A stretch of 58,661 bases of DNA from an uncultured Verrucomicrobia subdivision 3 bacterium (GCA_903912925.1 CAIWJG010000374.1:1-58661), one strand, 5' to 3'; counted from the stretch's first letter, positions 3,053 through 58,567 are shown. Notes: generated by a model not told the origin, from the letters alone. Made by a program: numbers and translations.

Positions 3053-3169
3053 GTTGGGTTAGTTGCATGGTTGCACGGTTACAAGGTTACATGGTTACAC
3101 GGTTATCAAGTGCGCTTCCCCTTGTAACCATGTAACCGTGTAACCATGCAACTCTTGTAACCATGCAAC
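3053..3169. repeat. Two convergent arrays of ~6 octamers (GTTRCANG x6, 10-nt centre, CNTGYAAC x6) in the queE/gdh divergent intergenic region
   Basis: 3062-3110 reads GTTGCATG GTTGCACG GTTACAAG GTTACATG GTTACACG GTTATCAAG. 3121-3169 reads CTTGTAAC CATGTAAC CGTGTAAC CATGCAAC t CTTGTAAC CATGCAAC. This is a large imperfect inverted repeat made of tandem 8-mers. Confidence 0.85.
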
Positions 3170-3219
3170 TCACTTCCCGCACTCTCTTTTCTCTTTACCA
3201 AATCCCGGCCACTGACCCT

Positions 3220-9630: not shown

Positions 9631-10095
9631 AAACGGAGCGATCTGCGCGCCTCAGCGCGCGCTCCAGCTTACAGACCCCCGTCAGCGATGCGAGCGGGAA
9701 GTAGCCGTTAGGGTCGCCTCGCCGAGACGGCCGCGCCCAGTCGTTTCAGCGAAACGCCTCTTCGACACTTCGGCAGAATCAATCGCCCGACGCTTTCCTC
9801 CCCGCTCGGCAACTCAGAAGCACCAGTTCAATACCAGCACCCCGAGAATCAGCACGCGATAGAGACAGCGGTCATTAATGACCTGCTTCATCGTTTTGAC
9901 CGGGTGCAATTGCGCGTAAATGACGGCTTTCATGCTCAGGTACATTCTCATGAACTGTTAGCCGCCCACTATTGCACACGGGGCGCCTCTCAATTCAGAG
10001 AATTGGGCCGTTTTGGCCCGAAAACAGACAAATCCTGAGGAAAACCGCAGACGGTTCAGCATCCCCACCCGCACACATCCCAAGCACCTCGCTAG

Positions 10096-10150
10096 TCCCT
10101 TAATGGTACCTTGATAGTACCTTGATAGTCCCTTAATAGTCCCATAATAC
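10096..10150. repeat. 11-bp tandem repeat x5 in a ~700-bp less GC-rich intergenic region
   Basis: TCCCTTAATGG TACCTTGATAG TACCTTGATAG TCCCTTAATAG TCCCATAATAC. The period is about one helical turn. It lies between the P1 stop (10326) and the GH2 start (9630). Confidence 0.85.
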
Positions 10151-10325: not shown

Positions 10326-12587
10326 TCAGGGGCTGGTAGATGTGCCTGGCGGGTGGGAGGAAGGGGCCGGAGCGGCAAGCGCGGCGTCCAGGTTCTTGCG
10401 GGCCTCCGCATAATCAGGCTTGAGTCTCAGGGCCTCCTGAAACTCCCGGATCGCCTCCCCGGTGCGTCCTTGCTTGTAAAGAGCGCTGCCCAGGTAATTG
10501 TGGGCCTCGGGGTAGCCGGGCCTCGCTTTCAGGGCTGCCTCAAAATGACGAACTGCCTCGGCCGTTTCGCCTCTCAGGCCGAGGGCAAGACCGAGGTTGA
10601 ACTGGGCCTCGGCATAATCCAATTTCAACCGGACCGCTTCCTGGAATTGGCGGATCGCCTCGTCCATTTGGCCCTTCCTGCCGAGGGCGATACCCAGCTC
10701 GTTGTGGGCCTCGGCGTAATCCGGTTTCAAGCGGATGGCCTCCTCCAATTGGCGGATGGCCTCCTCCATCTGGCCTTTCCTGTTGAGGACAATACCGAGG
10801 CCGTAGTGGGCGCCGACTTGATTTGGTTTCAAGCGGATAGCTTCCCGGAATTCGCGAATTGCCTCGTCCACCTGGCCGTTCTTGTTGAGGGCAATGCCGA
10901 GGTTGCAGTAGGCGCTGGAGTAACGCGGTTTCAAGCGGATGGCCTCCTCGAATTGGCGGATCGCCCCATCCATCTGGCCCTTCTGATCGAGCGCGATGCC
11001 AAGGCCATTGTGCGCGCCGTCATTGTTCTCGGTTACAGCGAGCGCATGTCGGAACAGGACCTCACTGTCGTGCCAATAGCCGATCTGTTGCCGCGTCATT
11101 GCCAGGCAGGCGAAGACCGCCACCCCGCCGGCCACCGATAGGAGGATGGGCGTGGAACGTGAAGCGTGGAGCGTGGAGCGTGCAAGCGCGTGTCCTACGC
11201 TCCCACGCTCCTCACGCTCCTCACGCTCCACGCCCCCTGCGGCCTTCCCCTGCATCAGTGCATACGCGCCCCAGACGGCGAGGATCACCACCCCCAGTGA
11301 CGGAAGATAAGTATAGCGATCTGCCATCGCGTGGCTGCCGGTCTGGATTATTTGGCTAACGGGCACCAGGGTCCCGCAATACCACAGCCAGCCCATCAGC
11401 AAGCAGGGATACCGCCGCCGCGCCGCCCAAAACAGCACCGAAATGCCCAGGATCACCGCCCCGGCCAGCAGCACCTTCTCCAATGGCCATTGCCCGGGGT
11501 GCGGATACACCACCGCCAGCTCCGCGGGCCAGAACAGCTTCCCCAAATAGCGGCCATAAGAAATCAGCGCGTTCCCGGCGCGCGCGCCCAAAGGCAGGCT
11601 TTCCCCCGCGTCCAACGCGCCGGTGTGCCGCTGCACCACGAAGGTCACCACGCTCGCCAGCGCCACGAGGAAAAAGAACGGGATCTTCTCGAAGAGCAAT
11701 GGAAGGTGAAACGTGAAACGTGAAATGGGTTGCGTGCCGGTGCCCGCTTCATTCTGCTTTCTGCATTCTGCATTCTGCATTCTTCGTAGCGGCCAATAAT
11801 CCAGTAGCAACATCACGAACGGCAACGTCACCAGCATCGGCTTGCTCATCAAGCCCAGGGCGAGGAAGCACAAGGATAGGAGATAGAAGATGCCGGTGTG
11901 AAACGTGAAACGTGAAACGTGAAACGTGAAACGGGTTGCGGGTTGCGTGTCGGTGGCCGCTTCATTCTGCATTCTGCCTTCTGCATTCTGCATTCTCCGT
12001 TGCGCGTAGCGGACGTAAGCGATTAAGGAAAGCAGTCCGAAGAACCCGCTGAGCACATCCTTCCGTTCGGACACCCAGGCCACCGATTCCACATGCAGCG
12101 GGTGCCACCCAAATAGCGCCGCCGCCAATACGCTCCGCCAAAGCGCTCCGGTAAGACCCCACAGAAACAGAAAGAATAGCATCGTGTTGACCGCGTGCAG
12201 CAGCACACTGGTCAGGTGATGTCCCCAGGGGTTCAAGCCAAACAGTTGGCAGTCCGCCATGTGCGACAAAACCGTCACCGGATGCCAAATGCAGTTTACC
12301 GGGGTGAGCAACGCCCACTTCACGCTTTCCCAGGTCAATCCCTTTTGGACCTGAGCATTTGCGGTGACGTGCAGATCGTCATCGTAGTTGACAAAGTCAC
12401 CGCGCGTCGCCGGCCAATAAATGGCAATTGTCACCAGCAACAGCAGTGCGGCAATCAGCCACAGCGGGATGCGCGGGGAATGGGAGTGAGGGGAGTGAGG
12501 GGCGGTATGGGGTGCGGCTTGAAACGTGAAACGTGAGGTCCGACCTTGGACCTCGGACTTCGGACTTTTGCCTTCTGCCTTCTTCAT
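10326..12587 (-). CDS. P1: TMTC-like GT-C membrane domain + ~8 TPR protein (putative protein O-glycosyltransferase)
   Basis: 753 aa. First-loop acidic motif 'FVNYDDDLHV'; 'WHPLHVESVAWVSERKDVLSGFFGLLSLIAY' is a DUF1736/TMTC-type block. C-terminal TPRs read 'AHNGLGIALDQKGQMDGAIRQFEEAIRLKP...'. The start lies 6 nt after the P2 stop. Confidence 0.75.
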   Translation of the reverse strand: MKKAEGKSPKSEVQGRTSRFTFQAAPHTAPHSPHSHSPRIPLWLIAALLLLVTIAIYWPATRGDFVNYDDDLHVTANAQVQKGLTWESVKWALLTPVNCIWHPVTVLSHMADCQLFGLNPWGHHLTSVLLHAVNTMLFFLFLWGLTGALWRSVLAAALFGWHPLHVESVAWVSERKDVLSGFFGLLSLIAYVRYAQRRMQNAEGRMQNEAATDTQPATRFTFHVSRFTFHTGIFYLLSLCFLALGLMSKPMLVTLPFVMLLLDYWPLRRMQNAECRKQNEAGTGTQPISRFTFHLPLLFEKIPFFFLVALASVVTFVVQRHTGALDAGESLPLGARAGNALISYGRYLGKLFWPAELAVVYPHPGQWPLEKVLLAGAVILGISVLFWAARRRYPCLLMGWLWYCGTLVPVSQIIQTGSHAMADRYTYLPSLGVVILAVWGAYALMQGKAAGGVEREEREERGSVGHALARSTLHASRSTPILLSVAGGVAVFACLAMTRQQIGYWHDSEVLFRHALAVTENNDGAHNGLGIALDQKGQMDGAIRQFEEAIRLKPRYSSAYCNLGIALNKNGQVDEAIREFREAIRLKPNQVGAHYGLGIVLNRKGQMEEAIRQLEEAIRLKPDYAEAHNELGIALGRKGQMDEAIRQFQEAVRLKLDYAEAQFNLGLALGLRGETAEAVRHFEAALKARPGYPEAHNYLGSALYKQGRTGEAIREFQEALRLKPDYAEARKNLDAALAAPAPSSHPPGTSTSP
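11148..11235 (-). repeat. In-frame imperfect palindromic insert (GGAGCGTG / CACGCTCC units) in P1
   Basis: GGGCGTGGAACGTGAAGCGTGGAGCGTGGAGCGTG-CAAGCGCGTGTCCTA-CGCTCCCACGCTCCTCACGCTCCTCACGCTCCACGCCC. It encodes 'GGVEREEREERGSVGHALARSTLHASRSTP' just before the last TM helix. Confidence 0.85.
11706..11785 (-). repeat. Heptamer cassette, P1 second loop site: (GTGAAAC)n - spacer - (TTCTGCA)n
   Basis: GTGAAAC GTGAAAC GTGAAAT GGGTTGC GTGCCGG ... TTCATTC TGCTTTC TGCATTC TGCATTC TGCATTC. It encodes 'RRMQNAECRKQNEAGTGTQPISRFTFH'. Confidence 0.9.
11898..11996 (-). repeat. Heptamer cassette, P1 first loop site
   Basis: GTGAAAC x5 (11898-11932), then GGGTTGC-type decayed units, then TTCTGCA-type units at 11961-11996. 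It encodes 'RRMQNAEGRMQNEAATDTQPATRFTFHVSRFTFH'. Confidence 0.9.
12531..12587 (-). repeat. Heptamer-built 5' end of P1
   Basis: GAAACGT x2, then CTTGGAC CTCGGAC TTCGGAC TTTTGCC TTCTGCC TTCTTCA up to the start codon. It encodes 'MKKAEGKSPKSEVQGRTSRFTF'. Confidence 0.8.
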
Positions 12588-12593
12588 TCTGCC

Positions 12594-15293
12594 TCAGCGG
12601 TTGGTGGCGGTGCCCGGAAGCCGCACAGAACCTGCGTGGGTGGCCAGCGCGGCCGCCAGGTTCGTGCGGGCATTGGCATAGTCAGGATTGAGTCTCAGGG
12701 CTTCCTGGAACTCTCGGATCGCTTCGCTCGTGCGTCCGTTCTGGCCGAGGGCAATTCCGAGGTTGTTGTGGGCGTTAGCCTGATCCGGTTTCAAGCGCAG
12801 AGCTTGCTGGAATTGGCTGATCGCCTCGTCCATCTGGCCTTTGCTCATGAACGCGGCGCCGAGGTTGTTGTGGGCGCTGGCGTAATCCGGTTTCAGGCGG
12901 ACGGCTTCCTGGTAATGGCGGATCGCTTCGTCAATCCGGCCTTTCCTGAAGAGGGCGATGCCGAGGTTGTAGTGCGCCTCCGCGTCAGCCGGTTTGAGTC
13001 GGACGGCTTCCTGGAATTCGCCTATCGCCGTGTCAACCTGGCCTTTCTTGAGGAGAGCGTGGCCAAGGTTATTGTGGGCGTCGGCGTAATCCGCTTTTAG
13101 GTGGATGGATAGCAAGTATTGGCCAATCGCCTCGTCAGTTTGGCCTCTCTGCTCGAGGGCGGCGCCAAGATTGTTGTGCCGGCTGGCGACTCCAGGCTTC
13201 AGGAGAAGCGCTTGCCGGAATTGACTGATCGCCTCGTCAATTTGGCCCTTCTTGACGAGGGCCGCGCCGAGGTTATCGCGGGCATCGGCATGTTCCGGGC
13301 TCAGGCGGAGCGCTTCCCGGTAGCGGCTCATCGCCGCATCAACCTGGCCTTCTTTGAAAAGCGCGATGCCAAGGTAGTTGTTAGCATCGGCAGAGTCGGG
13401 ATTGAGCTTCAGAGCTTCCTGGAGCTCCGGGATCGCTTCGCTGGGGTGGCCTTTCTGGCCGAGAGCAATTCCGAGGTTTCGGTGGGCATCGGCGCTATCC
13501 GGTTTCAGGCGGAGTGCTTCCCGTAATTGGCTGATCGCTGCGTCCACTTGGCCCTTCATGGCGAGGGCCTCGCCCAGGTGGTTGTGGGCATCGGCGTCCT
13601 CCGGTTTTAGGCGGAGGAATTCCTGCAAACGGTTAATCGCCTCGTCAACTTTGCCATTCTTGAGCAGCGCGAGGCCCAGGTTGTAGCGGCCGTAAATGTT
13701 ATCAGGTTTCAGGCGCAGCCCTTCCTGGAATTCGACGACCGCCTCACCGGCTTGGCCTTTTTCGACGAGGGCGATGCCGAGGTTGTTATGTGCGGCGGCA
13801 TTGTTCTCGGTGACTTCAAGCACATGGCGGAATAGGGTTTCGCTGTCCTTCCAATAACCAATCTGTTGCCGCGTCAACCCCAGGCACAGCACGATCGCCA
13901 CACCTCCTGCCACCGACAACGCCAGCACGGGATATCGCCAGCGTCGGGTCAGTTCGCAGGCGCCCCAAACCGTGATCATCAGCACCCCAACGGACGGCAA
14001 ATAAGTGAAACGATCCGCCATGAATGAAACCCAGCCCTTGGTCAAGCCAATCACCGGGATCAAGGTTCCCAAGAACCAGCACCAACCAACCAGCAGGTAA
14101 GGCCGCCGCCGCCCAAACCACAAGACGGCCAAACCCACGCCAACCAGCACCACAACCGATCCCCCCACCTCCAGCCACGACCAATGGCCGGGATTCACAT
14201 AGGGCACGGCCAGTTTGACTGGGCAGAAGGTCTTGCCCAGATAACGGGTGTAGGCCACCAACGCGTTCTCCAGCCGAAGCAGCGCCGGGGCCTCCTCAAA
14301 ACCAGCCGCTATCTGTCTCCCCCTTTCTGTCGAGTACGTGACGAAGCACGAGATCACGCTCAATGCAAAGAATGGGATCTTCTCGAAGAGCAAGGGGCGG
14401 ACGTGATGCGTGAAACCTGAAACGTGAAACGTGAAGGGTGTTGCGGGTTGCGTGTCGCTGGCTTCCACATTCTGCATTCTCTTCAGCGGCCAATAATCCA
14501 GCAGCAACATCACAAACGGCCAAGTCACGAGCGTCGCCTTGCTCATCAACCCGCAGGCGAAGAAGCACAAGGATAGGAGATAGAAGATGGAAGTTGGGAC
14601 TCGAACATCCAACATCCAACATCCAACATCGAACGCCGAACCTGGCACTACGGCCCGCGCCGCGCCCTCCGACTTCGGATTTCGGGTTTCGGGTTTCGGA
14701 TTTCCTTCGGATTTCGGGTTTCGGGTTTCGGATTTCCGCCTCCCCCTCCCTTGCGCGTAGCAGGCGTAAGCGATTAAGGAAAGCAGGCCAAAGCAGCCAC
14801 TGAGCACATCCTTCCGTTCCGTCACCCACGCCACCGACTCCACCCGCAGCGGATGCAGGGCAAACAGCGCCGCCACCACCACACTCCGCCACATCGCCCC
14901 CGTCAACCTCCGAAGCAGCAGGAACAACAACACGCCGTTGGCGGCGTGAAACGCTACATTCGTAAAGTGAAACCCCCCGGCCTTCCGGCCAAAGAGGCTC
15001 GCGTCCAACATCAACGAAAGCCAGGTCAGCGGATGCCAGTAATCCCCCTCATTCAGGCTAAACGCCCATTTCACCCCCTCCCAGTTCAAACCGCCCTGCA
15101 CGTGGGCGTTGGAGGTGACAAATTGAGGATCATCGTAGTTGATGAAATCAAAGCCCGTCACCGGCCAATACAGGACCAGCGTCACCAGCGCCAGCAAGAC
15201 GCCCATCAGCCACGCTGGTAGATGCGGCCAAGCCATCGCCGCGGTGGCTGCCCTCGTCGGGGTGGGTTCAGATTCGGTCTCTGGTTGGCGCAC
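12594..15293 (-). CDS. P2: TMTC-like GT-C membrane domain + ~13 TPR protein
   Basis: 899 aa with 'FINYDDPQFV' and 'LHPLRVESVAWVTERKDVLSGCFGLLSLIAY'. It has a long TPR domain and ends 'LPGTATNR'. Confidence 0.75.
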   Translation of the reverse strand: MRQPETESEPTPTRAATAAMAWPHLPAWLMGVLLALVTLVLYWPVTGFDFINYDDPQFVTSNAHVQGGLNWEGVKWAFSLNEGDYWHPLTWLSLMLDASLFGRKAGGFHFTNVAFHAANGVLLFLLLRRLTGAMWRSVVVAALFALHPLRVESVAWVTERKDVLSGCFGLLSLIAYACYAQGRGRRKSETRNPKSEGNPKPETRNPKSEGAARAVVPGSAFDVGCWMLDVRVPTSIFYLLSLCFFACGLMSKATLVTWPFVMLLLDYWPLKRMQNVEASDTQPATPFTFHVSGFTHHVRPLLFEKIPFFALSVISCFVTYSTERGRQIAAGFEEAPALLRLENALVAYTRYLGKTFCPVKLAVPYVNPGHWSWLEVGGSVVVLVGVGLAVLWFGRRRPYLLVGWCWFLGTLIPVIGLTKGWVSFMADRFTYLPSVGVLMITVWGACELTRRWRYPVLALSVAGGVAIVLCLGLTRQQIGYWKDSETLFRHVLEVTENNAAAHNNLGIALVEKGQAGEAVVEFQEGLRLKPDNIYGRYNLGLALLKNGKVDEAINRLQEFLRLKPEDADAHNHLGEALAMKGQVDAAISQLREALRLKPDSADAHRNLGIALGQKGHPSEAIPELQEALKLNPDSADANNYLGIALFKEGQVDAAMSRYREALRLSPEHADARDNLGAALVKKGQIDEAISQFRQALLLKPGVASRHNNLGAALEQRGQTDEAIGQYLLSIHLKADYADAHNNLGHALLKKGQVDTAIGEFQEAVRLKPADAEAHYNLGIALFRKGRIDEAIRHYQEAVRLKPDYASAHNNLGAAFMSKGQMDEAISQFQQALRLKPDQANAHNNLGIALGQNGRTSEAIREFQEALRLNPDYANARTNLAAALATHAGSVRLPGTATNR
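14403..14484 (-). repeat. Heptamer cassette, P2 second loop site (partly decayed)
   Basis: GTGATGC GTGAAAC CTGAAAC GTGAAAC GTGAAGG GTGTTGC GGGTTGC GTGTCGC ... CACATTCTGCATTCTC. It encodes 'KRMQNVEASDTQPATPFTFHVSGFTHH'. Confidence 0.85.
14603..14737 (-). repeat. Alternative heptamer cassette, P2 first loop site: ([CG]AACATC)n + (CGG[AG]TTT)n
   Basis: GAACATC CAACATC x3 GAACGCC (14603-14644). CTTCGGATTTCGGGTTTCGGGTTTCGGATTTC is duplicated in tandem (14672-14737). It encodes 'RRKSETRNPKSEGNPKPETRNPKSEG...SAFDVGCWMLDVRV'. Confidence 0.9.
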
Positions 15294-15311
15294 GGGACTC
15301 GCCAGAATAAC

Positions 15312-17519: not shown

Positions 17520-17577
17520 ACAACTCCCCTAACTATTGCTCAACCGCAGGACAAGGTCGGGACTTTAGCATGGCGAT

Positions 17578-17607
17578 TCTATAGCTGGAAAGCCGGTGCG
17601 TTGACAA
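17578..17607 (-). promoter_or_regulatory. Candidate sigma70-like promoter upstream of P3 in the 114-nt P4-P3 gap
   Basis: The minus strand reads AGCTTGTCAACGC-...-TATAGA: -35 TTGTCA, 18-nt spacer, -10 TATAGA. The 13-mer GCGTTGACAAGCT (plus strand, 17598-17610) recurs at 30633-30645 in front of P9. Confidence 0.35.
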
Positions 17608-17633
17608 GCTTGATCGTGCTGCCACCGGCACGG

Positions 17634-19922: not shown

Positions 19923-19927
19923 TCTGA

Positions 19928-22609: not shown

Positions 22610-22655
22610 GCTTTAGATCTTGGTCGCGGCTTGGCTCATAGAACTCCCAACCAAC

Positions 22656-24581: not shown

Positions 24582-24586
24582 TCTGA

Positions 24587-26563
24587 CTAGCGGTTGGTGG
24601 AGGAGGCGGGCGGCGGTGAAGCAGTGCCTCTGGTGGCCAGCACAATCGCCAGATTCTTGCGGGCCTCGGCATAGTCCGGCCTCAGTCTCAGGGCTTCCTG
24701 GAAGTGGCGGATCGCCTCGTCGGTTTGGCCCGTTAGGCCCAGGGCGGTGCCCAGGTTGTTGTGGGCCTCGGCGTAATCCGCGTTCAGGCGGATGGTTTCC
24801 TGGAATTGACGGATCGCCTCGCCGGTGCGGCCCCGCTGGAAGAAGGCGACCCCAAGGTTGTAGTGGACGCTGGCGTTAGCCGGGCTGAGGCGGAGGGCTT
24901 CCTCCAGTTGGCGAATCGCCTCGTCAATCTGGCCTCTTTCGTCGAGCGCGACGCCGAGGCCATAGTGAGCGAGCGTGTTGTTCTGCGTGACTTCGAGCGC
25001 ATGCCGGAAAAGGGCTTCACTGTCTCTCCAGTAACCAATCTGTTGCCGCGTCAACGCCAGGCACGCGAAGACCGCCACCCCGCCGACCACCGATAGGAGG
25101 ATGGGCGTGGAGCGTGCAAGCGCGTGTCCTACGCTCCCACGCTCCTCACGCTCCTCACGCTCCGCGCCCCCTGCGGCCTTCCCCTGCATCAGTTCATACG
25201 CGCCCCAGACAGTGAGGATCAGCACGCCAAGCGAAGGAAGATAAGTATAGCGATCCGCCATTGCCTGCGCGCCCACTTGCACCAACCCAATCACCGGGAC
25301 CAGCATCCCGACAAACCACAGCCATCCCACTAGCAAATAGGGATGCCTCCGCCGCTGCACCCAAGCCACCACCGAAAGGCCCGCGATCACCCCCCCCGCC
25401 AGGGCCACCTTCCCCAATGGCCAATGCCCCGGGTGCGGATAGTAAACCGCCAGATCCGCGGGCCAGAACAGCTTCCCCAGATAGCGGCCATACGAAATCA
25501 ACGCATTCACAACGCGTGCGCCGACGGACAGGCTTTCAGCCCCCATCACCGCGCTTGCCTGCTTCTGCACCAGGAAGGTCACCACACTCGACAACGCCGC
25601 GAGGAAAAAGAATGGCAGCTTTTCGAGGAGGAGGGAAACGTGAGGCGTGAAACGTGAGGCGTGCTGCGTGTCGGTGGCCGCTTCATTCTGCATTCTGCAT
25701 TCTGCATTCTGCATTCTCCCCAGCGGCCAGTAATCCAGCAGCAACATCACCAACGGCCACGTCACCAGCATCGGCTTGCTCATCAAGCCCAGAGCGAAGA
25801 AGCACAAGGATAGGAGATAGAAGATGCCGGTGTGAATCGTGAAACGTGAAACGTGAAACGTGAAACGTGTTGCGTGTTGCGTGTCGGTGGCCTCTTCATT
25901 CTGCATTCTGCATTCTGCATTCTGCATTCTCCGTTGCCCGTAGCGGGCGTAAGCGATTAAGGAAAGCAGGCCGAAGAACCCGCTGAGCACATCCTTGCGT
26001 TCCGACACCCAGGCCACCGACTCGACGCGCAGCGGGTGAAGGGCGAACAGCGCCGCCACCAACAGACTCCGCCACGCCGCGCCGGTCATAAGTTGCAGCA
26101 AGGCGAAGACCAACCCGGCGTTGAGCGCGTGCAGCAACACGCTGGTCAAATGATGTCCCCACGGCTTCAAACCGAATAGCTGGCAGTCCACCATGTGAGA
26201 CCACACCGTTAGGGGATGCCAATTGCAGTTCACCGGGTTAAACCAGGCCCATTTCAGGCTTTCCCAGGTCAGTCCCTTTTGGACCTGCATATTCGCGGTG
26301 ACGTGGGGACCGTCATCGTAGTTGACGAAGTCACCGCGCGTCGCCGGCCAGAACGTGGCAATCGTCACGAGCACCAGCAATGCGGCCAGCAGCCACACCG
26401 GGGGAGGGGGGATTTGCGATTCGCGATTCGCGACTGCACCCTGGTGCGTGGTGCATGCCGTCTTCTGCATTCTGCATTCTTCATTCTTCATTCTTCTCCC
26501 TAGTGGCAGCGGCATCCTGCCGCTCACAGGAGTCTTCTGCATTCTGCATTCTTCATTCTTCAT
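24587..26563 (-). CDS. P7: TMTC-like GT-C membrane domain + ~4 TPR protein
   Basis: 658 aa with 'FVNYDDGPHV' and 'LHPLRVESVAWVSERKDVLSGFFGLLSLIAY'. It has a duplicated leader 'MKNEECRMQKT...RRMKNEECRMQKT' and ends 'PPASSTNR'. The stop lies 5 nt before the P6 start. Confidence 0.75.
   Translation of the reverse strand: MKNEECRMQKTPVSGRMPLPLGRRMKNEECRMQKTACTTHQGAVANRESQIPPPPVWLLAALLVLVTIATFWPATRGDFVNYDDGPHVTANMQVQKGLTWESLKWAWFNPVNCNWHPLTVWSHMVDCQLFGLKPWGHHLTSVLLHALNAGLVFALLQLMTGAAWRSLLVAALFALHPLRVESVAWVSERKDVLSGFFGLLSLIAYARYGQRRMQNAECRMQNEEATDTQHATRFTFHVSRFTIHTGIFYLLSLCFFALGLMSKPMLVTWPLVMLLLDYWPLGRMQNAECRMQNEAATDTQHASRFTPHVSLLLEKLPFFFLAALSSVVTFLVQKQASAVMGAESLSVGARVVNALISYGRYLGKLFWPADLAVYYPHPGHWPLGKVALAGGVIAGLSVVAWVQRRRHPYLLVGWLWFVGMLVPVIGLVQVGAQAMADRYTYLPSLGVLILTVWGAYELMQGKAAGGAEREEREERGSVGHALARSTPILLSVVGGVAVFACLALTRQQIGYWRDSEALFRHALEVTQNNTLAHYGLGVALDERGQIDEAIRQLEEALRLSPANASVHYNLGVAFFQRGRTGEAIRQFQETIRLNADYAEAHNNLGTALGLTGQTDEAIRHFQEALRLRPDYAEARKNLAIVLATRGTASPPPASSTNR
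25103..25169 (-). repeat. In-frame palindromic insert in P7 (short left arm)
   Basis: GGGCGTGGAGCGTGCAAGCGCGTGTCCTACGCTCCCACGCTCCTCACGCTCCTCACGCTCCGCGCCC. Confidence 0.85.
25633..25718 (-). repeat. Heptamer cassette, P7 second loop site
   Basis: GGGAAAC GTGAGGC GTGAAAC GTGAGGC GTGCTGC GTGTCGG ... then (TTCTGCA)~5. Confidence 0.85.
25832..25931 (-). repeat. Heptamer cassette, P7 first loop site
   Basis: GTGAATC, GTGAAAC x4, GTGTTGC x2, GTGTCGG, spacer, then (TTCTGCA)~5. Confidence 0.9.
26411..26563 (-). repeat. Heptamer-built, internally duplicated 5' end of P7
   Basis: GATTTGC GATTCGC GATTCGC (26411-26431). Two TTCTGCA/TTCTTCA tracts (26462-26496 and 26534-26575) are separated by a short hairpin-capable spacer. 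Confidence 0.9.
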
Positions 26564-26575
26564 TCTTCATTCTGA

Positions 26576-28681
26576 CTAGCGGTTGGTGGTAGTGCCCGGC
26601 GGCGGCGAAGCCCGGGCCTTGGTCGCCAGCACCACGGCCAGGTTCGTGCGGGCCTCGCCATAGTCCGGCTTGAGGCGCAGGGCTTCCTGGAAGTGCCGGA
26701 TCGCCTCGTCCGTTTGCCCGTTCAGACCCACCGCCGTGCCCAGATTGTTGTGGGCCTGGTGGTGATCCGGTTGCAGGCGGATCGTTTCCCGAAATTGGCC
26801 GATTGCCTCGGCGGTGCGGCCTTGCTGGAAAAAGGCGACGCCGAGATTGTAGTGGGCGTCGGCGTAATCCGGTTCCAGGCGGAGGGCTTCCTGCAATTGG
26901 CCGATGGCTTTGTCACCTTGGCCTTGCTTGTCGAAGGCGATGCCGAGGTTGTAGTGGGTGTAGGCGTCATCCGGTTTCAAGCGAACGCCTTCCTCGAATT
27001 GGATGATCGCCTCGTCGGTTTGTCCTTTCTCGTAGAGCGCAACCCCAAGGTTTCTGTGTGCAAGCTCATTGTTCTCAGTCACTTCGATCGCATGCCGAAG
27101 CAGGACCTCGCTGTCCCGCCAATAGCCTAATTGGTAACGCGTCATGGCCAGGCACGCGAAGACCGCCACCCCGCCGACCACCGATAGGAGGATGGGCGTG
27201 GAGCGTGCAAGCGCGTGTCCTACGCTCCCACGCTCCTCACGCTCCTCACGCTCCAAGCCCCCTGCGGCCTTCCCCTGCATCAGTTCATACGCACCCCAGA
27301 TCGCCAGGATCAGTATCCCCAGCGACGGCACGTAGGTCCACCGATCCGCCATTGCGTGGCCGCCCGTTTGGATTACCTGGCTCACCGGCACCAGCGTCCC
27401 GCAATACCACAGCCAGCCCACCAGAAGAAAGGGATGCCGCCGCCGCTGCATCCAAACCAGCACCGAAATGCCCACAATCAAACCGGCTGCGGCCACCACC
27501 TTCCCCAGCGCCCAATGTCCGGGGTGCGGATAGACCACGGCCAGGTCCGAGGGCCAGAACAGCTTCCCCAGATAGCGGCAATAGGAAATCACCGCGTTCC
27601 CCAGGCGCGCGCCCAAGGGCAGGCTCTCGCCGGCCGCCAAAGCGCCGCCACGGTGCTGCACCACAAAGGTCAGGATGCTCATCAACGCCGCGAGGACAAA
27701 GAACGGGATCTTCTCGAAGAGCAAAGCGCGGGGAAGGTGAAACGTGAAACGTGAAACGTGAGGCGTGATGCGTGGCGCTTGTTGCGTGCCGGTGGCCTCT
27801 TCATTCTGCATTCTGCATTCTGCATTCTGCATTCTCCCCAGCGGCCAGTAATCCAGCAGCAACATCACCAAGGGCCACGTCACCAGCATCGGCTTGCTCA
27901 TCAAGCCCAAGGCGAGGAAGCACAAGGAGAGAAGATAGAAGATAGAAGATGGGGCTCGAACATCGAACGCCGAATCTGGCAATGCGGCCCGCGCCGAGCC
28001 TTCCGGCTTCGGATTTCGGGTTTCGGGTTTCGGATTTCCTTCGGGCTTCGGGTTTCGGGTTTCGGATTTCCGCCTCCCCCTGCCTTGCGCGTAGCAGACG
28101 TAAGCAATCAGCGCGAGCAAACCGAAGAAGCCGCTGAGCACATCTTTGCGTTCAGTCACCCAAGCCACCGATTCGACGCGCAACGGGTGAAAGGCGAACA
28201 ACGCCGCCACCAACAGGCTCCGCCACGCCGCGCCGGTCATCCGTTGCAGCAGGGCGAACACCAGCCCCGCGTTAAGCGCATGCAACAACACGTTAGCCAA
28301 ATGATGTCCCCAGGGATTCAAACCGCACATTTGACAGACCGCCATGTGAGACAACGCGGTTAAGGGGTGCCAATTGTTGGCGACCGGATGTAAGAGAACC
28401 CAGCTTATCCCCTCCCAGGTCAGTCCCTTTTGCACCAGAACATTCGAGGTGACGTGGAGACTGTCATCCAGGTTGACGAAGTCACATCGCGTCGCCGGCC
28501 AGTACAGGGCAACCGTCCCCAGCACCAGCAATACGCCCATCAGCCACCAGGGGATTTGCGATTTCCGATTTCCGATTTCCGATTGAGCGGTAAGGGCTGT
28601 GGCCTGCGGCGGGAGCGGCACTTCTACCTTCTGCATTCTGCATTCTGCATTCTGCATTCTCTGGGTCGTTGGTCGGCGCAT
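26576..28681 (-). CDS. P8: TMTC-like GT-C membrane domain + ~4-5 TPR protein
   Basis: 701 aa with 'FVNLDDSLHV' and 'FHPLRVESVAWVTERKDVLSGFFGLLALIAY'. It ends 'PPGTTTNR'. Confidence 0.75.
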   Translation of the reverse strand: MRRPTTQRMQNAECRMQKVEVPLPPQATALTAQSEIGNRKSQIPWWLMGVLLVLGTVALYWPATRCDFVNLDDSLHVTSNVLVQKGLTWEGISWVLLHPVANNWHPLTALSHMAVCQMCGLNPWGHHLANVLLHALNAGLVFALLQRMTGAAWRSLLVAALFAFHPLRVESVAWVTERKDVLSGFFGLLALIAYVCYAQGRGRRKSETRNPKPEGNPKPETRNPKPEGSARAALPDSAFDVRAPSSIFYLLSLCFLALGLMSKPMLVTWPLVMLLLDYWPLGRMQNAECRMQNEEATGTQQAPRITPHVSRFTFHLPRALLFEKIPFFVLAALMSILTFVVQHRGGALAAGESLPLGARLGNAVISYCRYLGKLFWPSDLAVVYPHPGHWALGKVVAAAGLIVGISVLVWMQRRRHPFLLVGWLWYCGTLVPVSQVIQTGGHAMADRWTYVPSLGILILAIWGAYELMQGKAAGGLEREEREERGSVGHALARSTPILLSVVGGVAVFACLAMTRYQLGYWRDSEVLLRHAIEVTENNELAHRNLGVALYEKGQTDEAIIQFEEGVRLKPDDAYTHYNLGIAFDKQGQGDKAIGQLQEALRLEPDYADAHYNLGVAFFQQGRTAEAIGQFRETIRLQPDHHQAHNNLGTAVGLNGQTDEAIRHFQEALRLKPDYGEARTNLAVVLATKARASPPPGTTTNR
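27194..27260 (-). repeat. In-frame palindromic insert in P8
   Basis: GGGCGTGGAGCGTGCAAGCGCGTGTCCTACGCTCCCACGCTCCTCACGCTCCTCACGCTCCAAGCCC. Confidence 0.85.
27737..27835 (-). repeat. Heptamer cassette, P8 second loop site
   Basis: GTGAAAC x3, GTGAGGC GTGATGC GTGGCGC ... then (TTCTGCA)~5. Confidence 0.9.
27958..28071 (-). repeat. Alternative heptamer cassette, P8 first loop site (as in P2)
   Basis: GAACATC GAACGCC GAATCTG, then a (CGG[AG]TTT)n block at 28007-28071. It encodes 'RRKSETRNPKPEGNPKPETRNPKPEG...SAFDV'. Confidence 0.9.
28552..28661 (-). repeat. Heptamer tracts in the 5' end of P8
   Basis: GATTTGC then GATTTCC x3 (28552-28584, 'SEIGNRKSQI') and (TTCTGCA)~5 (28628-28661, 'RMQNAECRMQK'). 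Confidence 0.9.
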
Positions 28682-28702
28682 AGAGCAGCTCGGTAAATGA
28701 AC

Positions 28703-30550
28703 TCAGGGCTTCAGAGCGCCGCCGGGCGGCGGCGAAGCCGCGGCCTTGTTGGCCAGCAGGAGGTTCAGGTTCTTACGGGCCTCGGCATTGTCCGGCTGGA
28801 GTCTCAGGGCTTCCTGGAACTGGCGGATCGCCTCGTCAGTTTGGCCCTGCCGGCCAAGAGCGGCCCCCAGGTTGTTGTGGGCCTGGGGGTGATCCGGCAC
28901 CAGCCGGAGGGCTTCCTGAAATTGGCGGATCGCCTCGTCGATGCGGCCCCGCTGGAAAAAGGCGACCCCGAGGTTGTAGTGGGCGTTAGCATACGCCGGA
29001 TTCAAGCGGACGGCTTCCTGGAATTGGCAAATCGCCTCGTCGATCTGGCCTTGGTTGTTGAGGGCGACACCGAGACCGTCGTGCGCGACGGCATTGTTCT
29101 GCGTGACTGCAAGCGTATGCCGAAACAAGGTCTCTCCGTCCTTCCAATAACCAATTTGTTGCCGCGTCAAGGCCAGGCACAGGAAGATCGCAGCCCCTCC
29201 TGCTACCGACCATGCCACCACCTGATACCGCCAGCCTCGCGTCAGGTCGCACCCGCCCCAGACCACCAGGATCAGCACCCCAAGGGACGGCAGATAAGTC
29301 CACCGATCCGCCATCGCGTGGGTGCCGGTCTGGATCACCTGACTGAGCGGCACCAGCGTCCCACAATACCACAACCACCCCATCAGCAAAAACGGAAAGC
29401 GCCGCCGCTGCGCCCAAACCAGCACCGAGATGCCGAGGATCAACCCGCCCGCCAGCAACACCTCGCCCAGCGGCCAATGCCCGGGATGTGGATAATAGAC
29501 CGCCAGATCCGTTGGCCAGAGCAGCTTCCCCAAATAGCGGCTATAGGAAATCAGCGCGTTCGCGAGGCGCGCGCTCAGGGGCAGGCTTTCGCCGACCGCC
29601 AAACCGCCGCCATGCTTCTGCACCACGATGGTCACGACGCTCTCCAAGGCCGCGAGCACAAAGAACGGGATCTTCTCGAAGAGCAAAGGGCGTGGAACGT
29701 GAAACGTGAAACGTGAGGTGTGAAACGTGAAACGTGAAACGTGAGGCGGGGTGCTGGCGGCTGCATTCGGCATTCGGCATTCGGCATTCGGCATTCTTCG
29801 TAGCGGCCAATAATCCAGCAACAACATCACGAACGGCCACGTCACCAGCGTCGGCTTGCTCATCAAGCCGAGGGCGAGGAAGAACAGGGAGAGGAGGTAG
29901 AAGATAGAAGATGGGATTCGAACATCCAACATCGAACATCCAACATCGAACGCCGAACCCAGACCGGCGGCCTGCACGGAGCCTTCGGGCTTCTGCATTC
30001 TGCATTCTGCATTCTGCATTCTCCGTTGGGCGTAGCCCACGTAGGCCATGAGCGAGAGGAGGCCGAAGAACACGCAGAGCACCTCCCGGCGTTCCGTCAC
30101 CCAGACGACAGCTTCGACGCGCAGCGGGTGAACGGCGAAGCAGGCCGCCACCAACAGGCTCCGCCACCTCGCGCCGGTCATCTGTTGCAGCAGGGAAAAA
30201 ACCAGCGCCACGTTGAGGGCGTGCAGCAGCACGTTGACCAAATGATGTCCCCCGGGGGCTGAACCGCACACCTGATAGACCAGCATGTGGGACCACACCG
30301 TTAGGGGAAGCCACCCCCCGTTCAGCGGGTGGAACAATGCCCATTTTATGCTTTCCCAGGTCAGTCCCTGTTGGACGTGAACATTCGCGGCAACGTTGAC
30401 CCCGTCATCCAGGTTGACGAAGCCGCAGCGCGTGGCGGGCCAGTACACGGCCAAAGTGACCAGCACCAGCATCACCGCCAGCAGCCACGTCGCCAACGGC
30501 GCAGCGGCCTTCATCCGAACAGGCGAGGCTTGGGTCACGGGTCGGCGCAT
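28703..30550 (-). CDS. P9: TMTC-like GT-C membrane domain + ~4 TPR protein (first gene of the array)
   Basis: 615 aa with 'FVNLDDGVNV' and 'VHPLRVEAVVWVTERREVLCVFFGLLSLMAY'. A strong GGAGG Shine-Dalgarno site lies ~8 nt upstream of the ATG (30557-30561). Confidence 0.75.
   Translation of the reverse strand: MRRPVTQASPVRMKAAAPLATWLLAVMLVLVTLAVYWPATRCGFVNLDDGVNVAANVHVQQGLTWESIKWALFHPLNGGWLPLTVWSHMLVYQVCGSAPGGHHLVNVLLHALNVALVFSLLQQMTGARWRSLLVAACFAVHPLRVEAVVWVTERREVLCVFFGLLSLMAYVGYAQRRMQNAECRMQKPEGSVQAAGLGSAFDVGCSMLDVRIPSSIFYLLSLFFLALGLMSKPTLVTWPFVMLLLDYWPLRRMPNAECRMPNAAASTPPHVSRFTFHTSRFTFHVPRPLLFEKIPFFVLAALESVVTIVVQKHGGGLAVGESLPLSARLANALISYSRYLGKLLWPTDLAVYYPHPGHWPLGEVLLAGGLILGISVLVWAQRRRFPFLLMGWLWYCGTLVPLSQVIQTGTHAMADRWTYLPSLGVLILVVWGGCDLTRGWRYQVVAWSVAGGAAIFLCLALTRQQIGYWKDGETLFRHTLAVTQNNAVAHDGLGVALNNQGQIDEAICQFQEAVRLNPAYANAHYNLGVAFFQRGRIDEAIRQFQEALRLVPDHPQAHNNLGAALGRQGQTDEAIRQFQEALRLQPDNAEARKNLNLLLANKAAASPPPGGALKP
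29702..29808 (-). repeat. Heptamer cassette, P9 second loop site, with a (GGCATTC)n variant
   Basis: GTGGAAC, GTGAAAC x2, GTGAGGT, GTGAAAC x3, GTGAGGC ... CTGCATTC then GGCATTC x4. It encodes 'RRMPNAECRMPNAAASTPPHVSRFTFHTSRFTFH'. Confidence 0.9.
29920..30022 (-). repeat. Hybrid heptamer cassette, P9 first loop site
   Basis: GAACATC CAACATC GAACATC CAACATC GAACGCC (29920-29954), then (TTCTGCA)~4 (29990-30022). It encodes 'RRMQNAECRMQKPEGS...SAFDVGCSMLDVRI'. Confidence 0.9.
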
Positions 30551-57466: not shown

Positions 57467-57661
57467 CACCTTTGTGGTTTATTTGTTTCACTATTTATGA
57501 CCTATTATTCTGCCATGAAGCGACTTAACTCATGCATTGTCCCGGCGCTGGTCGCGGCGGGGAGGAATGGGAGGAAGGATGGCGATCCGGGCACGGGCAC
57601 GGCGCTGGGCGAGGTTGTCCGCCGCCGCCGCAGGCCCGACAGGGATGCGGCTGCGGCGCGC

Positions 57662-58108: not shown

Positions 58109-58567
58109 GCCCCCACCGTCAGGGAACAACGGAACAATGGCAAGCGCATTATGCCGCACCACTTCTGTCGCCAAGGAAATCGAAGGCGGCGGCAGCGCCG
58201 AAGATCTCGATCTAATCCCTCGAAAGAAGGCACTTTCATGGCTGCGAATGGACCAGAAATTGCAGAAGCCCAGCCTATTTGCCGGCAATTCTCATTTTGG
58301 CTGGTCTGGGAAGTTTGGAGTCCACCCTTGTTAGCGTGTCTGAGGCCGCAACCACGCTAAAGCGTGAACTCCGAACCTGGGGTGCCTCGATCTCGGATTA
58401 ACACATTCCGGCGCGGGGTGAGCCTCTCATATTGGTCCGGAGCGCGGACATTCTTGCCCAATGCCGCTAGGATTTGAGCGACATGTTCCAGTGGCAATGA
58501 TTCTGTCGCTTCCGGTAATAGCTTTCCCCAAGATCCCGCATAGCATCGAACAACTTCCACCAATTGA

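Follow-up and report, generated by a model that had tools for sequence, protein, structure and literature searches.

Heptanucleotide repeat arrays within a family of glycosyltransferase-like genes of Verrucomicrobiota are probably tolerated insertions held in frame by selection

A stretch of DNA from an uncultured Verrucomicrobia subdivision 3 bacterium (58.7 kb, hereafter the window) raises the question of why a block of nine genes should carry tandem repeats of 7 nt, a unit that is not a multiple of three, inside intact reading frames. The original prediction had offered two answers, nine INDEPENDENTLY switchable glycosyltransferases or a family of repeat cassettes colonising permissive loops. 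Using TRF and an exact-period scan, we found 46 perfect period-7 tracts of at least 2.5 copies in the window, all 46 within the nine-gene block (10326 to 30550) and none in the remaining 38 kb. The same exact-period scan of the window gave no tracts with periods of 5, 8, 10, or 11, and dinucleotide shuffles of the block (n = 100) gave 0 tracts compared to the 46 real ones; 7-nt tandem direct repeats were far more frequent in the block than expected by chance. All nine ORFs (P1 to P9) were intact and carried at least one tract, with perfect runs of only 2 to 5 units, and the heptamer units listed in the original prediction were correct. A single imperfect heptamer-type tract was located outside the block, in frame in an aminotransferase gene (1132 to 1163). 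The coordinates of the host genes and cassettes are given in Table 1.

Table 1. Host genes and repeat cassettes of the nine-gene block
Feature	Position	Strand	Basis
P1, putative GT-C-fold membrane domain + TPR	10326..12587	-	ORF call, TPR by Pfam, family analysis
P1 site-3, inverted 9-nt/7-nt arrays, hairpin z -5.6	11150..11237	-	
P1 site-2 loop, type A	11700..11786	-	
P1 site-1 loop, type A (AGAATGC..CGTTTCA)	11889..11999	-	
P1 5'/N-terminal tract (CGTTTCA, AGTCCGA, GAAGGCA units)	12520..12594	-	
P2, host gene	12594..15293	-	ORF call, TPR by Pfam
P2 site-2 loop, degenerate type A	14394..14483	-	
P2 site-1 loop, type B (CCCGAAA/ATCCGAA ... GGATGTT)	14586..14750	-	
P3, host gene	15312..17519	-	ORF call, TPR by Pfam
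P3 site-2 loop, degenerate type A; another type in orthologue P0068	16704..16787	-	
P3 site-1 loop, TGCAGAA then CCTCTTC units	16890..16973	-	
P4, host gene; identical in sister contig L001	17634..19922	-	ORF call, TPR by Pfam
P4 site-3, inverted 9-nt/7-nt arrays	18536..18623	-	
P4 site-2 loop, type A	19086..19172	-	
P4 site-1 loop, type A	19275..19364	-	
P4 5' tract (AGAATGM)n..(GCAAATC)n, begins 2 nt past P5 stop codon	19842..19926	-	
P5, different N-terminal membrane domain + TPR	19928..22609	-	ORF call, TPR by Pfam
P5 (GTTTCAC)4.7 in turn empty (AWRE-RRIW) in most homologues	21758..21790	-	
P6, host gene, structure modelled	22656..24581	-	ORF call, model
P6 site-3 loop, inverted heptamers (GAAATCC../..GGATTTC), hairpin z -2.3	23160..23258	-	
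P6 site-2 loop, type A; +21 nt in L002	23703..23810	-	
P6 site-1 loop, type A	23913..24023	-	
P6 5' tract, supplies start codon; one unit (7 nt) different vs L002	24501..24585	-	
P7, host gene	24587..26563	-	ORF call, TPR by Pfam
P7 site-3, 9-nt array arm	25127..25177	-	
P7 site-2 loop, type A	25634..25720	-	
P7 site-1 loop, type A	25823..25933	-	
P7 5' tracts, two AGAATGM arrays + GAATCGC	26411..26574	-	
P8, host gene	26576..28681	-	ORF call, TPR by Pfam
P8 site-3 loop, hairpin cassette z -3.3	27182..27280	-	
P8 site-2 loop, type A	27725..27838	-	
P8 site-1 loop, type B; another type in 94% orthologue P0046	27941..28084	-	
P8 N-terminal tract (TGCAGAA)4.6..(GAAATCG)3.7	28553..28660	-	
P9, host gene	28703..30550	-	ORF call, TPR by Pfam
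P9 site-2 loop, (CGAATGC)4.9..(GTTTCAC)	29687..29800	-	
P9 site-1 loop, hybrid (TGCAGAA + GGATGTT-type)	29903..30025	-	

The arrangement of the cassettes was largely as predicted. The composite (TGCAGAA)n-middle-(GTTTCAC)m was found after LLLDYWPLxR in eight paralogs and a second cassette after AY..YAQRR in P1, P4, P6, and P7, while the CGGATTT/AACATCC cassette of P2 and P8, the hybrid of P9, the AGGGAAG version of P3, and the (GTTTCAC) tract of P5 were likewise recovered. The middle part, previously regarded as a separate spacer, was a multiple of 7 nt in 93 of 99 cassettes, and the whole cassette is therefore one continuous 7-nt-phased array (AGAATGC > AGCGGCC > CGCAACA > CGTTTCA) rather than two arrays around a unique sequence. 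Along its approximately 8 to 15 units, of fixed polarity, perfect AGAATGC units give way to diverged units and then to perfect CGTTTCA units; the boundaries were ragged and the unit counts varied continuously. We refer to this composite as type A and to CCCGAAA/ATCCGAA ... GGATGTT as type B. Since three units equal seven codons, a perfect array gives one cyclic peptide in every frame. A constant reading frame for the spacer had also been proposed, which applied to the first middle units (E-E/A-A-T/S-D/G-T) but not to the right array, which was entered in all three codon phases (39, 19, and 15 of the 73 loops of sites 1 and 2 taken together). Nor was every coding-strand unit free of stops, since AAGAATG (=AGAATGA) carries a TGA; arrays of this unit with at least 2.9 copies were confined to 5' ends, and a 2.4-copy stretch was present within the P6 site-2 cassette.

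A third in-ORF site, preceding the last TM helix, contained 9-nt plus 7-nt inverted arrays. Hairpins were restricted to these site-3 cassettes (z -2.3 to -5.6), while type A lacked both hairpins and terminal inverted repeats, folding no better than shuffled sequences (z 0.15 to 1.65). At the other end of the genes, the 5' tracts of P6 and P4 started at most 2 nt from the upstream stop codon, and those of P7 and P8 fell within ~55 codons of the start of the called ORF.

What kind of proteins tolerate these arrays? The hosts have a C-terminal TPR array and a membrane domain without any match in Pfam or NCBIfam. For the N-domain model of a host protein, the 14 best PDB matches were all GT-C enzymes (probability 0.94 to 1.0), although these fold matches were weak (E 5.5e-3 to 0.16, TM-scores 0.3 to 0.42); the earlier label "TMTC-like" is supported at the level of the fold only. 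Two aspartates, D59 and D60, located after TM1 in loop 1, were conserved in at least 90% of 56 homologues, and this acidic pair, placed in the first external loop, is, judged by sequence, a candidate catalytic motif. The multi-pass N-domain, the acidic pair in loop 1, and the C-terminal TPR array resemble TMTC/PMT-type GT-C O-mannosyltransferases, from which the hosts differ by the unmatched membrane domain and weak fold-search E-values. We regard them as putative GT-C-type glycosyltransferase-like proteins. The putative GT-C fold, D59-D60, and the Arg residues flanking each cytoplasmic site together point to an 11-TM topology with the N terminus inside and the TPR array outside. All cassettes would then face the cytoplasm, at four positions, i.e., the N-terminal tail and three inter-TM turns. 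The P6 model had four segments of low pLDDT, and these were the four cassette positions.

Comparison with homologues indicated that the cassettes are additions. Site 3 was a 16-aa minimal turn in 47 of 56 homologues and site 2 was minimal in 10 of 56, the shortest site-1 loop was 11 aa, and the P5-type turn AWRE-RRIW was empty in most homologues, among them P0335, which clusters with filled orthologues at 90% identity. A control lineage (L202) with at least nine tandem paralogs contained one tract. Given these minimal repeat-free turns and the nearly tract-free L202 array, we conclude that the cassettes are insertions. The cassette type had also been exchanged at one site between 90 to 95% identical orthologues. 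With empty turns at every site in homologues, type swaps, unrelated hosts, the probable cytoplasmic face, and low pLDDT, the predicted colonisation of permissive, Arg-flanked loops was well supported.

Related loci beyond the window were picked via the cassette itself, the source genome being represented by the 58.7 kb only. Among these loci, the AGAATGC..CGTTTCA composite was found in prepilin leaders, upstream of a conserved FT(L/M)IE motif, and in a loop of a soluble CxxxCxxC protein (L133), by eye likely a radical-SAM enzyme resembling the rRNA methyltransferase RlmN. Altogether, the polarised array occurred in at least five unrelated gene contexts, at non-homologous positions and on many contigs, with identical unit series and constant polarity. 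In the Verrucomicrobiota lineage most copies were inside ORFs and only the 5' tracts fitted an intergenic/start-codon pattern; composites outside long ORFs amounted to at most ~2 of 99, in short open frames of <70 codons. The (GTTTCAC)3 repeat was found in >119 stretches compared to 0.27 expected, across many phyla (Chloroflexota, Nitrospirota, Desulfococcaceae, Gemmatimonadota, Verrucomicrobiota, and others). Hosts with internal (GTTTCAC)n tracts included PMT_2 and TMEM260-like proteins, and in other phyla ~47 of 135 such tracts lay at the 5' end of a gene on the same strand.

Almost all indels between close strains fell within tracts. Those inside ORFs measured 21, 21, and 9 nt, with 9-nt units at site 3 (P1 site 3 differed from L003/L004 by 9-nt and 21-nt indels), and a single 7-nt step separated the P6 5' tract from that of L002. 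Together with a series of alleles that had 2, 4, or 5 units (L128/L134/L167), these strain differences showed 7-nt increments. Loop lengths formed ladders with 21-nt rungs, and the proteins within a cluster were 634/641/648 aa or 748/755/762 aa long. In ~35 tracts compared with a 99.9% identical sister assembly, no gaps and no length change were observed. Substitution rates in cassettes were no higher than in the flanks, i.e., there was no hypermutation.

The reading frame was almost always kept. In metagenomes, 76 of 79 cassettes (~96%) were in frame, and the three others came from two different alleles, of which one is a decayed pseudogene (L137). Three frameshift alleles were tied to a tract or cassette (L134=L148, P0331/P0329, and P0263/P0265); in the 2/4/5-unit series only the 4-unit allele was frameshifted. 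Unit changes other than multiples of three were rare but present between close strains (L128/L134/L167; P0331/P0329), at least two split-gene pairs were found among the cluster members listed (up to 15 per cluster), and single-unit changes compensated inside a cassette have occurred. Frameshifted (OFF) alleles were not common among the strains compared. Changes solely by multiples of three units had been named as an outcome that would refute phase variation; this pattern prevailed but did not hold strictly, the in-ORF indels between close strains being divisible by 3 nt and mostly 3-unit steps, with the three frameshift alleles as exceptions.

Taken together, we consider it probable that the tracts belong to a known, dispersed class of heptanucleotide SSR arrays, which permissive loops tolerate and which change by slippage under selection for the frame. 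Arrays would persist only where harmless, i.e., in stop-free orientation and in the cytoplasmic N-terminal tail, tight cytoplasmic inter-TM turns, prepilin leaders, or occasionally a soluble-enzyme loop, translated as floppy low-complexity heptad peptides whose neutrality we assume. Units would be gained and lost through replication slippage, and selection for the downstream frame would let only net 3-unit (21-nt) changes survive in ORFs; single-unit changes could survive if they fall in the 5' tract or are offset in the same cassette, and uncompensated ones would give rare null alleles. Cassettes are lost, gained, or swapped for other types at one site, copies within one gene may recombine, and spread between paralogs may have occurred by ectopic recombination. 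In-place slippage cannot produce the composite at non-homologous sites, and some copy mechanism is therefore needed. This counts against the reading as tolerated arrays, as do the glycosyltransferase and pilin hosts, the three frameshifted alleles, and the coding rather than intergenic copies. Glycosyltransferases and pilins are classic contingency-gene classes.

The closest known systems are the TAACTGA repeats of Beggiatoaceae, Cyanobacteria, and Bacteroidetes and the STRR heptamers of cyanobacteria (PMC4679880; PMC4692102). Long SSRs most often have units of 7 nt, for which slippage has been suggested, and 7-nt increments between strains have been reported (PMC4679880, PMC4692102). These known repeats are dispersed over many loci, and, as here, they form tandem arrays of 2 to tens of copies with related units mixed per array, often lie just upstream of or at start codons, share one unit between distant phyla without a known vector, and occasionally lie in ORFs, encoding surface loops. 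However, they lie overwhelmingly between genes, with ORFs containing fewer than expected, and TAACTGA has stops in its forward orientation, whereas the present cassettes are mostly translated, long polarised composites in few membrane-protein families, at fixed, probably cytoplasmic turns and changing in 21-nt steps.

An alternative is an active mobile element, the composite being non-autonomous and copied to new sites by a dedicated enzyme, with selection keeping the in-frame sense copies. Rickettsia palindromic elements (RPEs) and intragenic MITEs provide the precedent, being short in-frame repeats in unrelated genes, with a fold-compatible peptide and many copies per genome, and RPEs show that frequent in-frame coding insertion is possible (PMC10969869). 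Unrelated ORFs with in-frame insertions were indeed found here, homologues had the corresponding sites empty, and the recurrence of the polarised array in unrelated contexts, presence or absence of whole cassettes within one 90%-identity cluster, replacement by another type at one site, and the spread of the GTTTCAC unit over many phyla are all in line with mobility. Nevertheless, we judge this rather unlikely. RPEs are palindromic, ~150 bp long, and of conserved unique sequence, while type A consists of direct 7-nt arrays of variable unit number with ragged boundaries and neither terminal inverted repeats nor a hairpin (z >= 0). Random transposition would leave many intergenic composites, and these were rare. 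Furthermore, no transposase or reverse transcriptase was identified among the window ORFs searched with Pfam, a search that covered 4000 of the 8869 residues of the giant ORF and gave no match for the ORFs at 3106 to 4380 and 57497 to 58360.

Could the tracts instead be contingency loci, with slipped-strand changes switching glycosyltransferase and pilin genes for combinatorial surface variation and the 5' tracts tuning expression? Such loci in Haemophilus, Neisseria, and Campylobacter likewise have non-triplet SSRs within or upstream of surface-related genes, where gaining or losing a unit changes the frame, and natural frameshifted alleles are known; heptamer repeats govern phase variation of the HMW adhesins of Haemophilus (hmw1A; PMC8262952). 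The tracts within ORFs and at 5' ends, the nature of the hosts, the frameshift alleles (L134=L148, P0331/P0329), and the one-unit polymorphism in the P6 5' tract would all agree with switching, and several arrays per cassette would offer several routes of reversion. On the other hand, the perfect runs are short, nearly all cassettes and all nine window genes are in frame, in-ORF variation between strains proceeds in 3-unit steps, the sister tracts were unchanged, cassettes also lie deep downstream in ORFs, likely housekeeping enzymes (the RlmN-like L133 and the aminotransferase) carry arrays, and one OFF copy is a decayed pseudogene. We hence regard contingency loci as unlikely, and routine phase variation of the nine paralogs was mostly unsupported. 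Given the three frameshift alleles, slow or sub-clonal switching may occur.

It is very unlikely that the RMQNAEC and FTFHVSR heptads are selected as functional cytoplasmic linkers or interaction motifs, with the DNA repetition secondary. The constant frame of the first middle units, the recurrence of the positions beside TM helices, and the AF2 model, in which helices after TM4 and TM6 extend into the RMQNAEC part, would fit such modules. However, the peptides are missing from most homologues and from the whole L202 lineage, one site can accept different cassette types, and pLDDT is low. The repeats are also perfect at the DNA level, indicating recent expansion, and the prepilin cassette is in a leader that is normally cleaved during processing. 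Finally, although contigs often terminate in tracts and deletions between cassette copies may be repeat collapse, an assembly or sequencing artefact has a negligible chance of being the explanation, as independent ENA, JGI, and NCBI assemblies contain the same cassettes with the same numbers of units, and ORFs remain open across them.

As tolerated arrays, the tracts would be mutation hot spots under frame selection rather than tuned on/off switches, and a known 7-nt repeat class would have become fixed within coding sequence in a lineage-specific manner in this group of Verrucomicrobiota. Should the composite, improbably, be an actively propagating, coding-competent module, i.e., a mobile element that lacks inverted repeats and inserts copies of itself into sequence encoding cytoplasmic turns and leaders, it would supply its own ATG codons and be frame-robust, since the peptide of a perfect array is independent of frame and slippage in one array could therefore be rescued by the next. 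Such a module would be an engine of paralog diversification and of slow, reversible inactivation of surface-related glycosyltransferase and pilin genes in Verrucomicrobiota.

The nine neighboring genes P1 to P9, which encode TPR membrane proteins with a putative GT-C fold (P5 with a different membrane domain), form tandem minus-strand open reading frames (ORFs), none of which is broken. TRF and an exact-period scan detected 46 perfect tracts with a period of 7 nt (2.5 copies or more). Every one is inside this block, and the remaining 38 kb of the window has none; periods of 5, 8, 10, and 11 gave no such tracts. Dinucleotide-preserving shuffles of the block (n = 100) yielded no tracts. On the coding strand, TGCAGAA (17 tracts) and GTTTCAC (13 tracts) were the most frequent units, besides about 20 minor ones. 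Comparison of the ORFs and loops of P1 to P9 bore out the original prediction in its assignment of cassettes (7-nt-phased repeat arrays) to the paralogs. No Rfam match was found across the whole window.

Positions of repeat tracts, cassette sites, and accompanying features in the window and in related loci
Feature	Coordinates or position	Observation
P1 to P9	10326-30550 (-)	Nine tandem ORFs
5' tract of P6 and P4	Begins 2 nt past the stop codon of the upstream gene	Seen on DNA
5' tracts of P7 and P8	Within ~55 codons of the start of each called ORF
Site 1	After ..YAQRR
Site 2	After ..DYWPLxR
Site 3	Ahead of the last transmembrane helix
5' tract and start of P6 in the source annotation (P0244)	24553-24585	634 aa; start is the last ATG of the 5' tract
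TPR arrays of P1 to P9	e.g., 10581-10983, 12757-13274, 20091-21023	102-nt repeats
Large ORF	30744-57353 (-)	8869 aa; PATR, Ig-like, PA14, and YDG repeats; no heptamer tract
Tract in class-III aminotransferase gene	1132-1163	Imperfect heptamer-type tract GCCCTCG/ACCCTCA, in frame, encoding SLSALDPQPSTL; sole heptamer-like tract outside the paralog block; similar to STLNSQL-type cassettes of homologues
Intergenic hairpin	3056-3180	Strong (-65 kcal/mol); inverted 8-nt-unit arrays, (GGTTACAN)n facing (NTGTAACC)n; between a radical-SAM gene (2276-3016) and ORF 3106-4380; architecture like heptamer hairpins, different period (8 nt)
11-nt-unit tandem array	10086-10149	TAGTACCTTAA, ~5 copies; intergenic, 3' of P1
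Control paralog array	L202:1-22553	Another Verrucomicrobiota lineage; adjoins a PEP-CTERM-domain protein and a PMT_2 protein
Y1 transposase	L204:279-707	142 aa; PF01797, IS200/IS605 or REP-associated type
Tandem prepilin-type genes	e.g., L130:5460-7286	Also in L176 and L182; each gene has its own cassette, with different unit types, in the leader just before a (F/Y)T(L/M)(I/V/L)E motif

Searching metagenomes for the composite pattern, whether or not the ORF was intact, recovered 99 cassettes. In 7-nt register, the type A cassette (the AGAATGC..CGTTTCA composite) reads (AGAATGC)n AGAATGA AGAGGCC ACCGACA CGCGACA (CGCAACA)2 (CGTTTCA)m. Because the stretch between the two perfect arrays was an exact multiple of 7 nt in 93 of the 99, and the same polarized unit series (AGAATGC > AGAAKCC/AGCGGCC > AGCATCA/CGCAMCA > CGTTTCA > CGCMTCA) was common to every context, the cassette is a single phased array with diverged middle units, and not two arrays parted by a unique spacer as originally described. 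A hairpin or terminator nature was rejected for type A cassettes, which folded no better than shuffles (z of 0.15 to 1.65); site-3 cassettes, built of 9-nt and 7-nt inverted arrays, gave strong hairpins (z of -5.6, -3.3, and -2.3).

Every AGAATGM unit of the 5' tract offers an ATG. The repeat units had been described as stop-free on the coding strand, which does not hold for AGAATGA: it contains TGA, and three or more such units therefore cannot be coding. AGAATGA arrays of at least 2.9 copies occurred at 5' ends only, and the site-2 cassette of P6 contains a stretch of 2.4 copies. Judging from the called start, one extra AGAATGA unit at the related locus L002 probably creates an upstream in-frame TGA. 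Given this and the annotated start, the P6 5' tract is probably mostly 5' UTR, supplying the start codon.

Pfam models matched only the C-terminal TPRs of P1 to P9, and no Pfam or NCBIfam model matched the N-terminal 450 to 480 residues, the membrane domain. TPR matches dominated both the PDB profile search and the fold search with the full-length protein, and the N-domain model alone was informative. In the AlphaFold model of P6 (pTM 0.82), the low-confidence stretches (residues 1-30, 191-220, 261-290, and 441-470) are the four cassette positions. The 14 best PDB matches of its N-domain were all GT-C glycosyltransferases (AftA, ArnT, Pmt4, PglB, Pmt1/2, AglB, and STT3), with Foldseek probabilities of 0.94 to 1.0, weak E-values (5.5e-3 to 0.16), and TM-scores of 0.3 to 0.42. 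Two aspartates following TM1, D59 and D60, were conserved in at least 90% of 56 homologues. GT-C enzymes usually have an N-in/C-out layout. From this layout, the helix order in the model, and the arginines at the proposed inner ends, we infer 11 transmembrane helices with all four cassette sites cytoplasmic, opposite the conserved periplasmic loops, in line with the original prediction that the host loops are probably cytoplasmic.

Immediately upstream of the nine genes, and on their strand, is the 8869-aa ORF, whose product could, by analogy with TMTC enzymes and cadherin repeats, be the glycosylation substrate of the proteins they encode. The TPR arrays change by whole 34-aa repeats among orthologues at least 90% identical (clusters of P0122 and P0126), which gives these genes a second way of varying in length, one compatible with triplets.

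Comparison with 56 diverse homologues shows that the cassettes are insertions. Site 3 was a turn of invariant length (16 aa; L-T/I-RGWRYQ..L.VAG) in 47 of them and 34 to 85 aa in the other nine. Site 2 had a minimal 16 aa in 10 homologues (e.g., PLGRFKHGSIWRLVME) and was longer in the others, reaching 65 aa, and site 1 ranged from 11 to 63 aa. The longer loops contained heptad peptides of many kinds (MQNAECR/FTFHVSR, STLNSQL, KSKVQSP, WSVVRGP, SVISNQW...ITDHRLL, and ETRNPKS). Most P5 homologues have a tight turn, ..AWRE(R/G)RRIWAPLLAATGP..; at this turn P5, P0141, and P0223 carry GFTFHVSRFTFH, and P0143 and P0152 a different composite cassette. The turn is empty in P0335, whereas orthologues of the same 90%-identity cluster carry a cassette in three different lengths. 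P0002, P0331, P0257, P0254, and P0335 were analyzed from protein sequences and gene coordinates, on which the deletion junctions, one frameshift, and the insertion boundaries accordingly rest. Minimal turns in the homologues, together with the empty and filled P0335 orthologues, lend good support to the earlier suggestion that cassettes colonize permissive loops. Because the control lineage L202, with at least nine tandem family paralogs in 22.5 kb and site-2 loops of 13 to 16 aa, carries a single heptamer tract, the tracts are a lineage-specific overlay and no property of the protein family as such. The L204 transposase gene lies ~9 kb from a cassette-free family member.

Outside the family, 17 of the 99 composite cassettes lacked the family flanks, and about 12 of these were located in prepilin-type proteins, where they occupy the N-terminal leader up to an FTMIEIAISLA(I/V)IGFALVAI motif. 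Another (L133) sits in a loop of a CxxxCxxC protein, read by eye as a putative radical-SAM, RlmN-like enzyme. The flankless loci also held other heptamer tracts of many unit types, mostly again in leaders of tandem pilin-like genes. Tract density in the metagenome loci was 1.49/kb in family ORFs versus 0.20/kb elsewhere, a qualitative comparison biased by the choice of loci via the cassette. More than 119 stretches of species-representative genomes contained (GTTTCAC)3, where chance would give 0.27; they came from Chloroflexota, Nitrospirota, Desulfococcaceae, Gemmatimonadota, Acidobacteriota, Verrucomicrobiota, and others. These loci held 247 period-7 tracts versus at most 12 for any other period. 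The (GTTTCAC)n array often had an inverted (GTGAAAC)n array opposite it. Of 135 tracts, about 47 were at the 5' end of a same-strand gene, and a PMT_2 protein and a TMEM260-like GT-C protein are among the hosts of internal tracts. Two candidate explanations may account for the arrival of the same composite array at non-homologous sites: ectopic recombination that starts from shared units, and a dedicated mobility function, which is rather unlikely.

The independent sister assembly L001 matched window positions 11981-27254 at 99.935% identity without gaps and without a length change in ~35 tracts; both ends of its contig lie inside tracts. In ~9 kb of orthologous DNA at 97 to 98% identity, the clean in-ORF indels measured 21, 21, and 9 nt, all in tracts, and the only single 7-nt unit indel lay in the P6 5' tract, where frame is irrelevant. 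(A 1-nt gap opening the L002 alignment, 5 nt from the match end, was taken for an alignment-edge effect.) Between 90 to 95% identical orthologues, the cassette type differed at the same site (wP8/P0046, wP1/P0059, wP3/P0068, and wP7/P0010, w marking the window gene). Loop lengths between fixed protein anchors formed ladders with 21-nt rungs (93/114/135, 96/117/138, 99/120/141, and 102/123/144), and members of 90% clusters measured 634/641/648 aa and 748/755/762 aa. Internal cluster indels mostly comprised 7 aa, 6 aa (interpreted as a pair of 9-nt units), or one or more complete TPR repeats of 34 aa.

The original prediction also held that the spacer is read in the same frame in every copy. This is true of the first middle units, which translate as E-(E/A)-A-(T/S)-(D/G)-T, the left array starting in codon phase 0 in 62 of 73 loops, but not beyond them. 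Because the number of later CGCAACA-type units varies in steps of one and all three codon phases occur at the entry into the right array (39, 19, and 15 of the 73), single-unit changes have been compensated inside cassettes. Such a change would be cheap for the protein, since a perfect heptamer array yields one and the same cyclic peptide whichever frame is read. There was no signal of recent cassette homogenization beyond that of the flanks (same-site identity of 0.86 versus 0.81 to 0.87), and the similarity of site-1 to site-2 cassettes (0.88; noise level ~0.73) shows common origin only.

Nine independently switchable glycosyltransferases had been proposed. Tract changes are not confined to multiples of three units: others occur and truncate paralogs. 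At the locus represented by L128, L134, and L167, whose flanks are ~97% identical, the cassette has two (116 nt, in frame), four (130 nt, frameshifted), or five (137 nt, in frame) AGAATGN units; the L134 frameshift leads to a stop ~50 codons downstream, and the same allele was found in a second sample (L148). In a P5-type orthologue, P0331 and P0329 overlap mid-contig in different frames, with the break within a shortened (GTTTCAC)n tract, and in P0263/P0265 a site-1 cassette is joined out of frame to a site-2 end. L137 looks like a decayed pseudogene with additional stops. P0257 and P0254 were rejected as frameshift alleles, their genes starting 78 and 112 nt from a contig end. However, 76 of 79 metagenome cassettes having both conserved flanks were in frame, and all nine window ORFs are intact. 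Since only a few percent of assembled alleles are frameshifted, these alleles fit better with a mutational hazard under purifying selection than with a maintained ON/OFF system; unlike at contingency loci, OFF alleles are not common, and phase variation kept as a strategy is unlikely. In-frame deletions from site 1 to site 2, with loss of two transmembrane helices and ~71 aa, occurred in P0002, P0005, and L138 (~878-948) and may reflect recombination between cassette copies or assembly collapse; P0005 resembles a P1/P6 chimera. Targeted hypermutation of the DGR type was rejected, the substitution density in cassettes being no higher than in the flanks.

Heptamer direct repeats (TAACTGA) are known from Beggiatoaceae, Cyanobacteria, and Bacteroidetes, mostly a few nucleotides upstream of start codons and occasionally in ORFs, where they encode surface loops; strains differ mostly by 7-nt increments, and the distribution suggests horizontal spread, "but no mechanism is evident" (MacGregor 2015, PMC4679880). 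Earlier work cited there found 7-nt units to be the most abundant long simple sequence repeats (SSRs) in most genomes and proposed polymerase slippage. Heptameric SSRs, then without detailed literature, were reported to be over-represented and to lie mostly between genes; the coding strand of ORFs is depleted in them (Rehm 2015, PMC4692102). None of the literature searched describes heptamer arrays from Verrucomicrobia. The arrays of this lineage resemble the class in the length of the unit, in changing by 7 nt, in favoring 5' ends, in having units that recur across phyla, and possibly in dispersal, but they are mainly coding, form long polarized composites, and are concentrated at probably cytoplasmic turns of GT-C-like/TPR paralogs and in pilin leaders. 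In-frame intragenic insertions can be frequent for Rickettsia palindromic elements (PMC10969869); unlike these and MITEs, the type A cassettes are not palindromic. We favor, with moderate confidence, heptanucleotide SSR arrays of this known dispersed class: slippage would change the unit number, the reading frame would filter the outcome, and arrays would become fixed in frame at positions tolerated by the product. Now and then null alleles would arise and cassettes be exchanged, and deletions between cassettes may occur.

In many large bacterial genomes, heptanucleotide arrays outnumber every other kind of long microsatellite. Accounts of them deal mainly with intergenic copies, and where they come from, how they spread, and what they do is essentially without explanation to date. 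In practical terms, the tracts interrupt metagenome contigs, displace the start codons that are called, and make proteins look more diverse than they are in Verrucomicrobiota annotations. In this lineage translation of the arrays is routine, both at defined, probably cytoplasmic turns of putative membrane enzymes present in multiple copies and in the leaders of pilins. They provide a natural experiment on which protein positions tolerate arbitrary insertions, on how frame selection quantizes microsatellite evolution into 21-nt rungs, and on how, as paralog families expand, non-triplet repeats give rise to null alleles, to deletions, and perhaps to chimeras.
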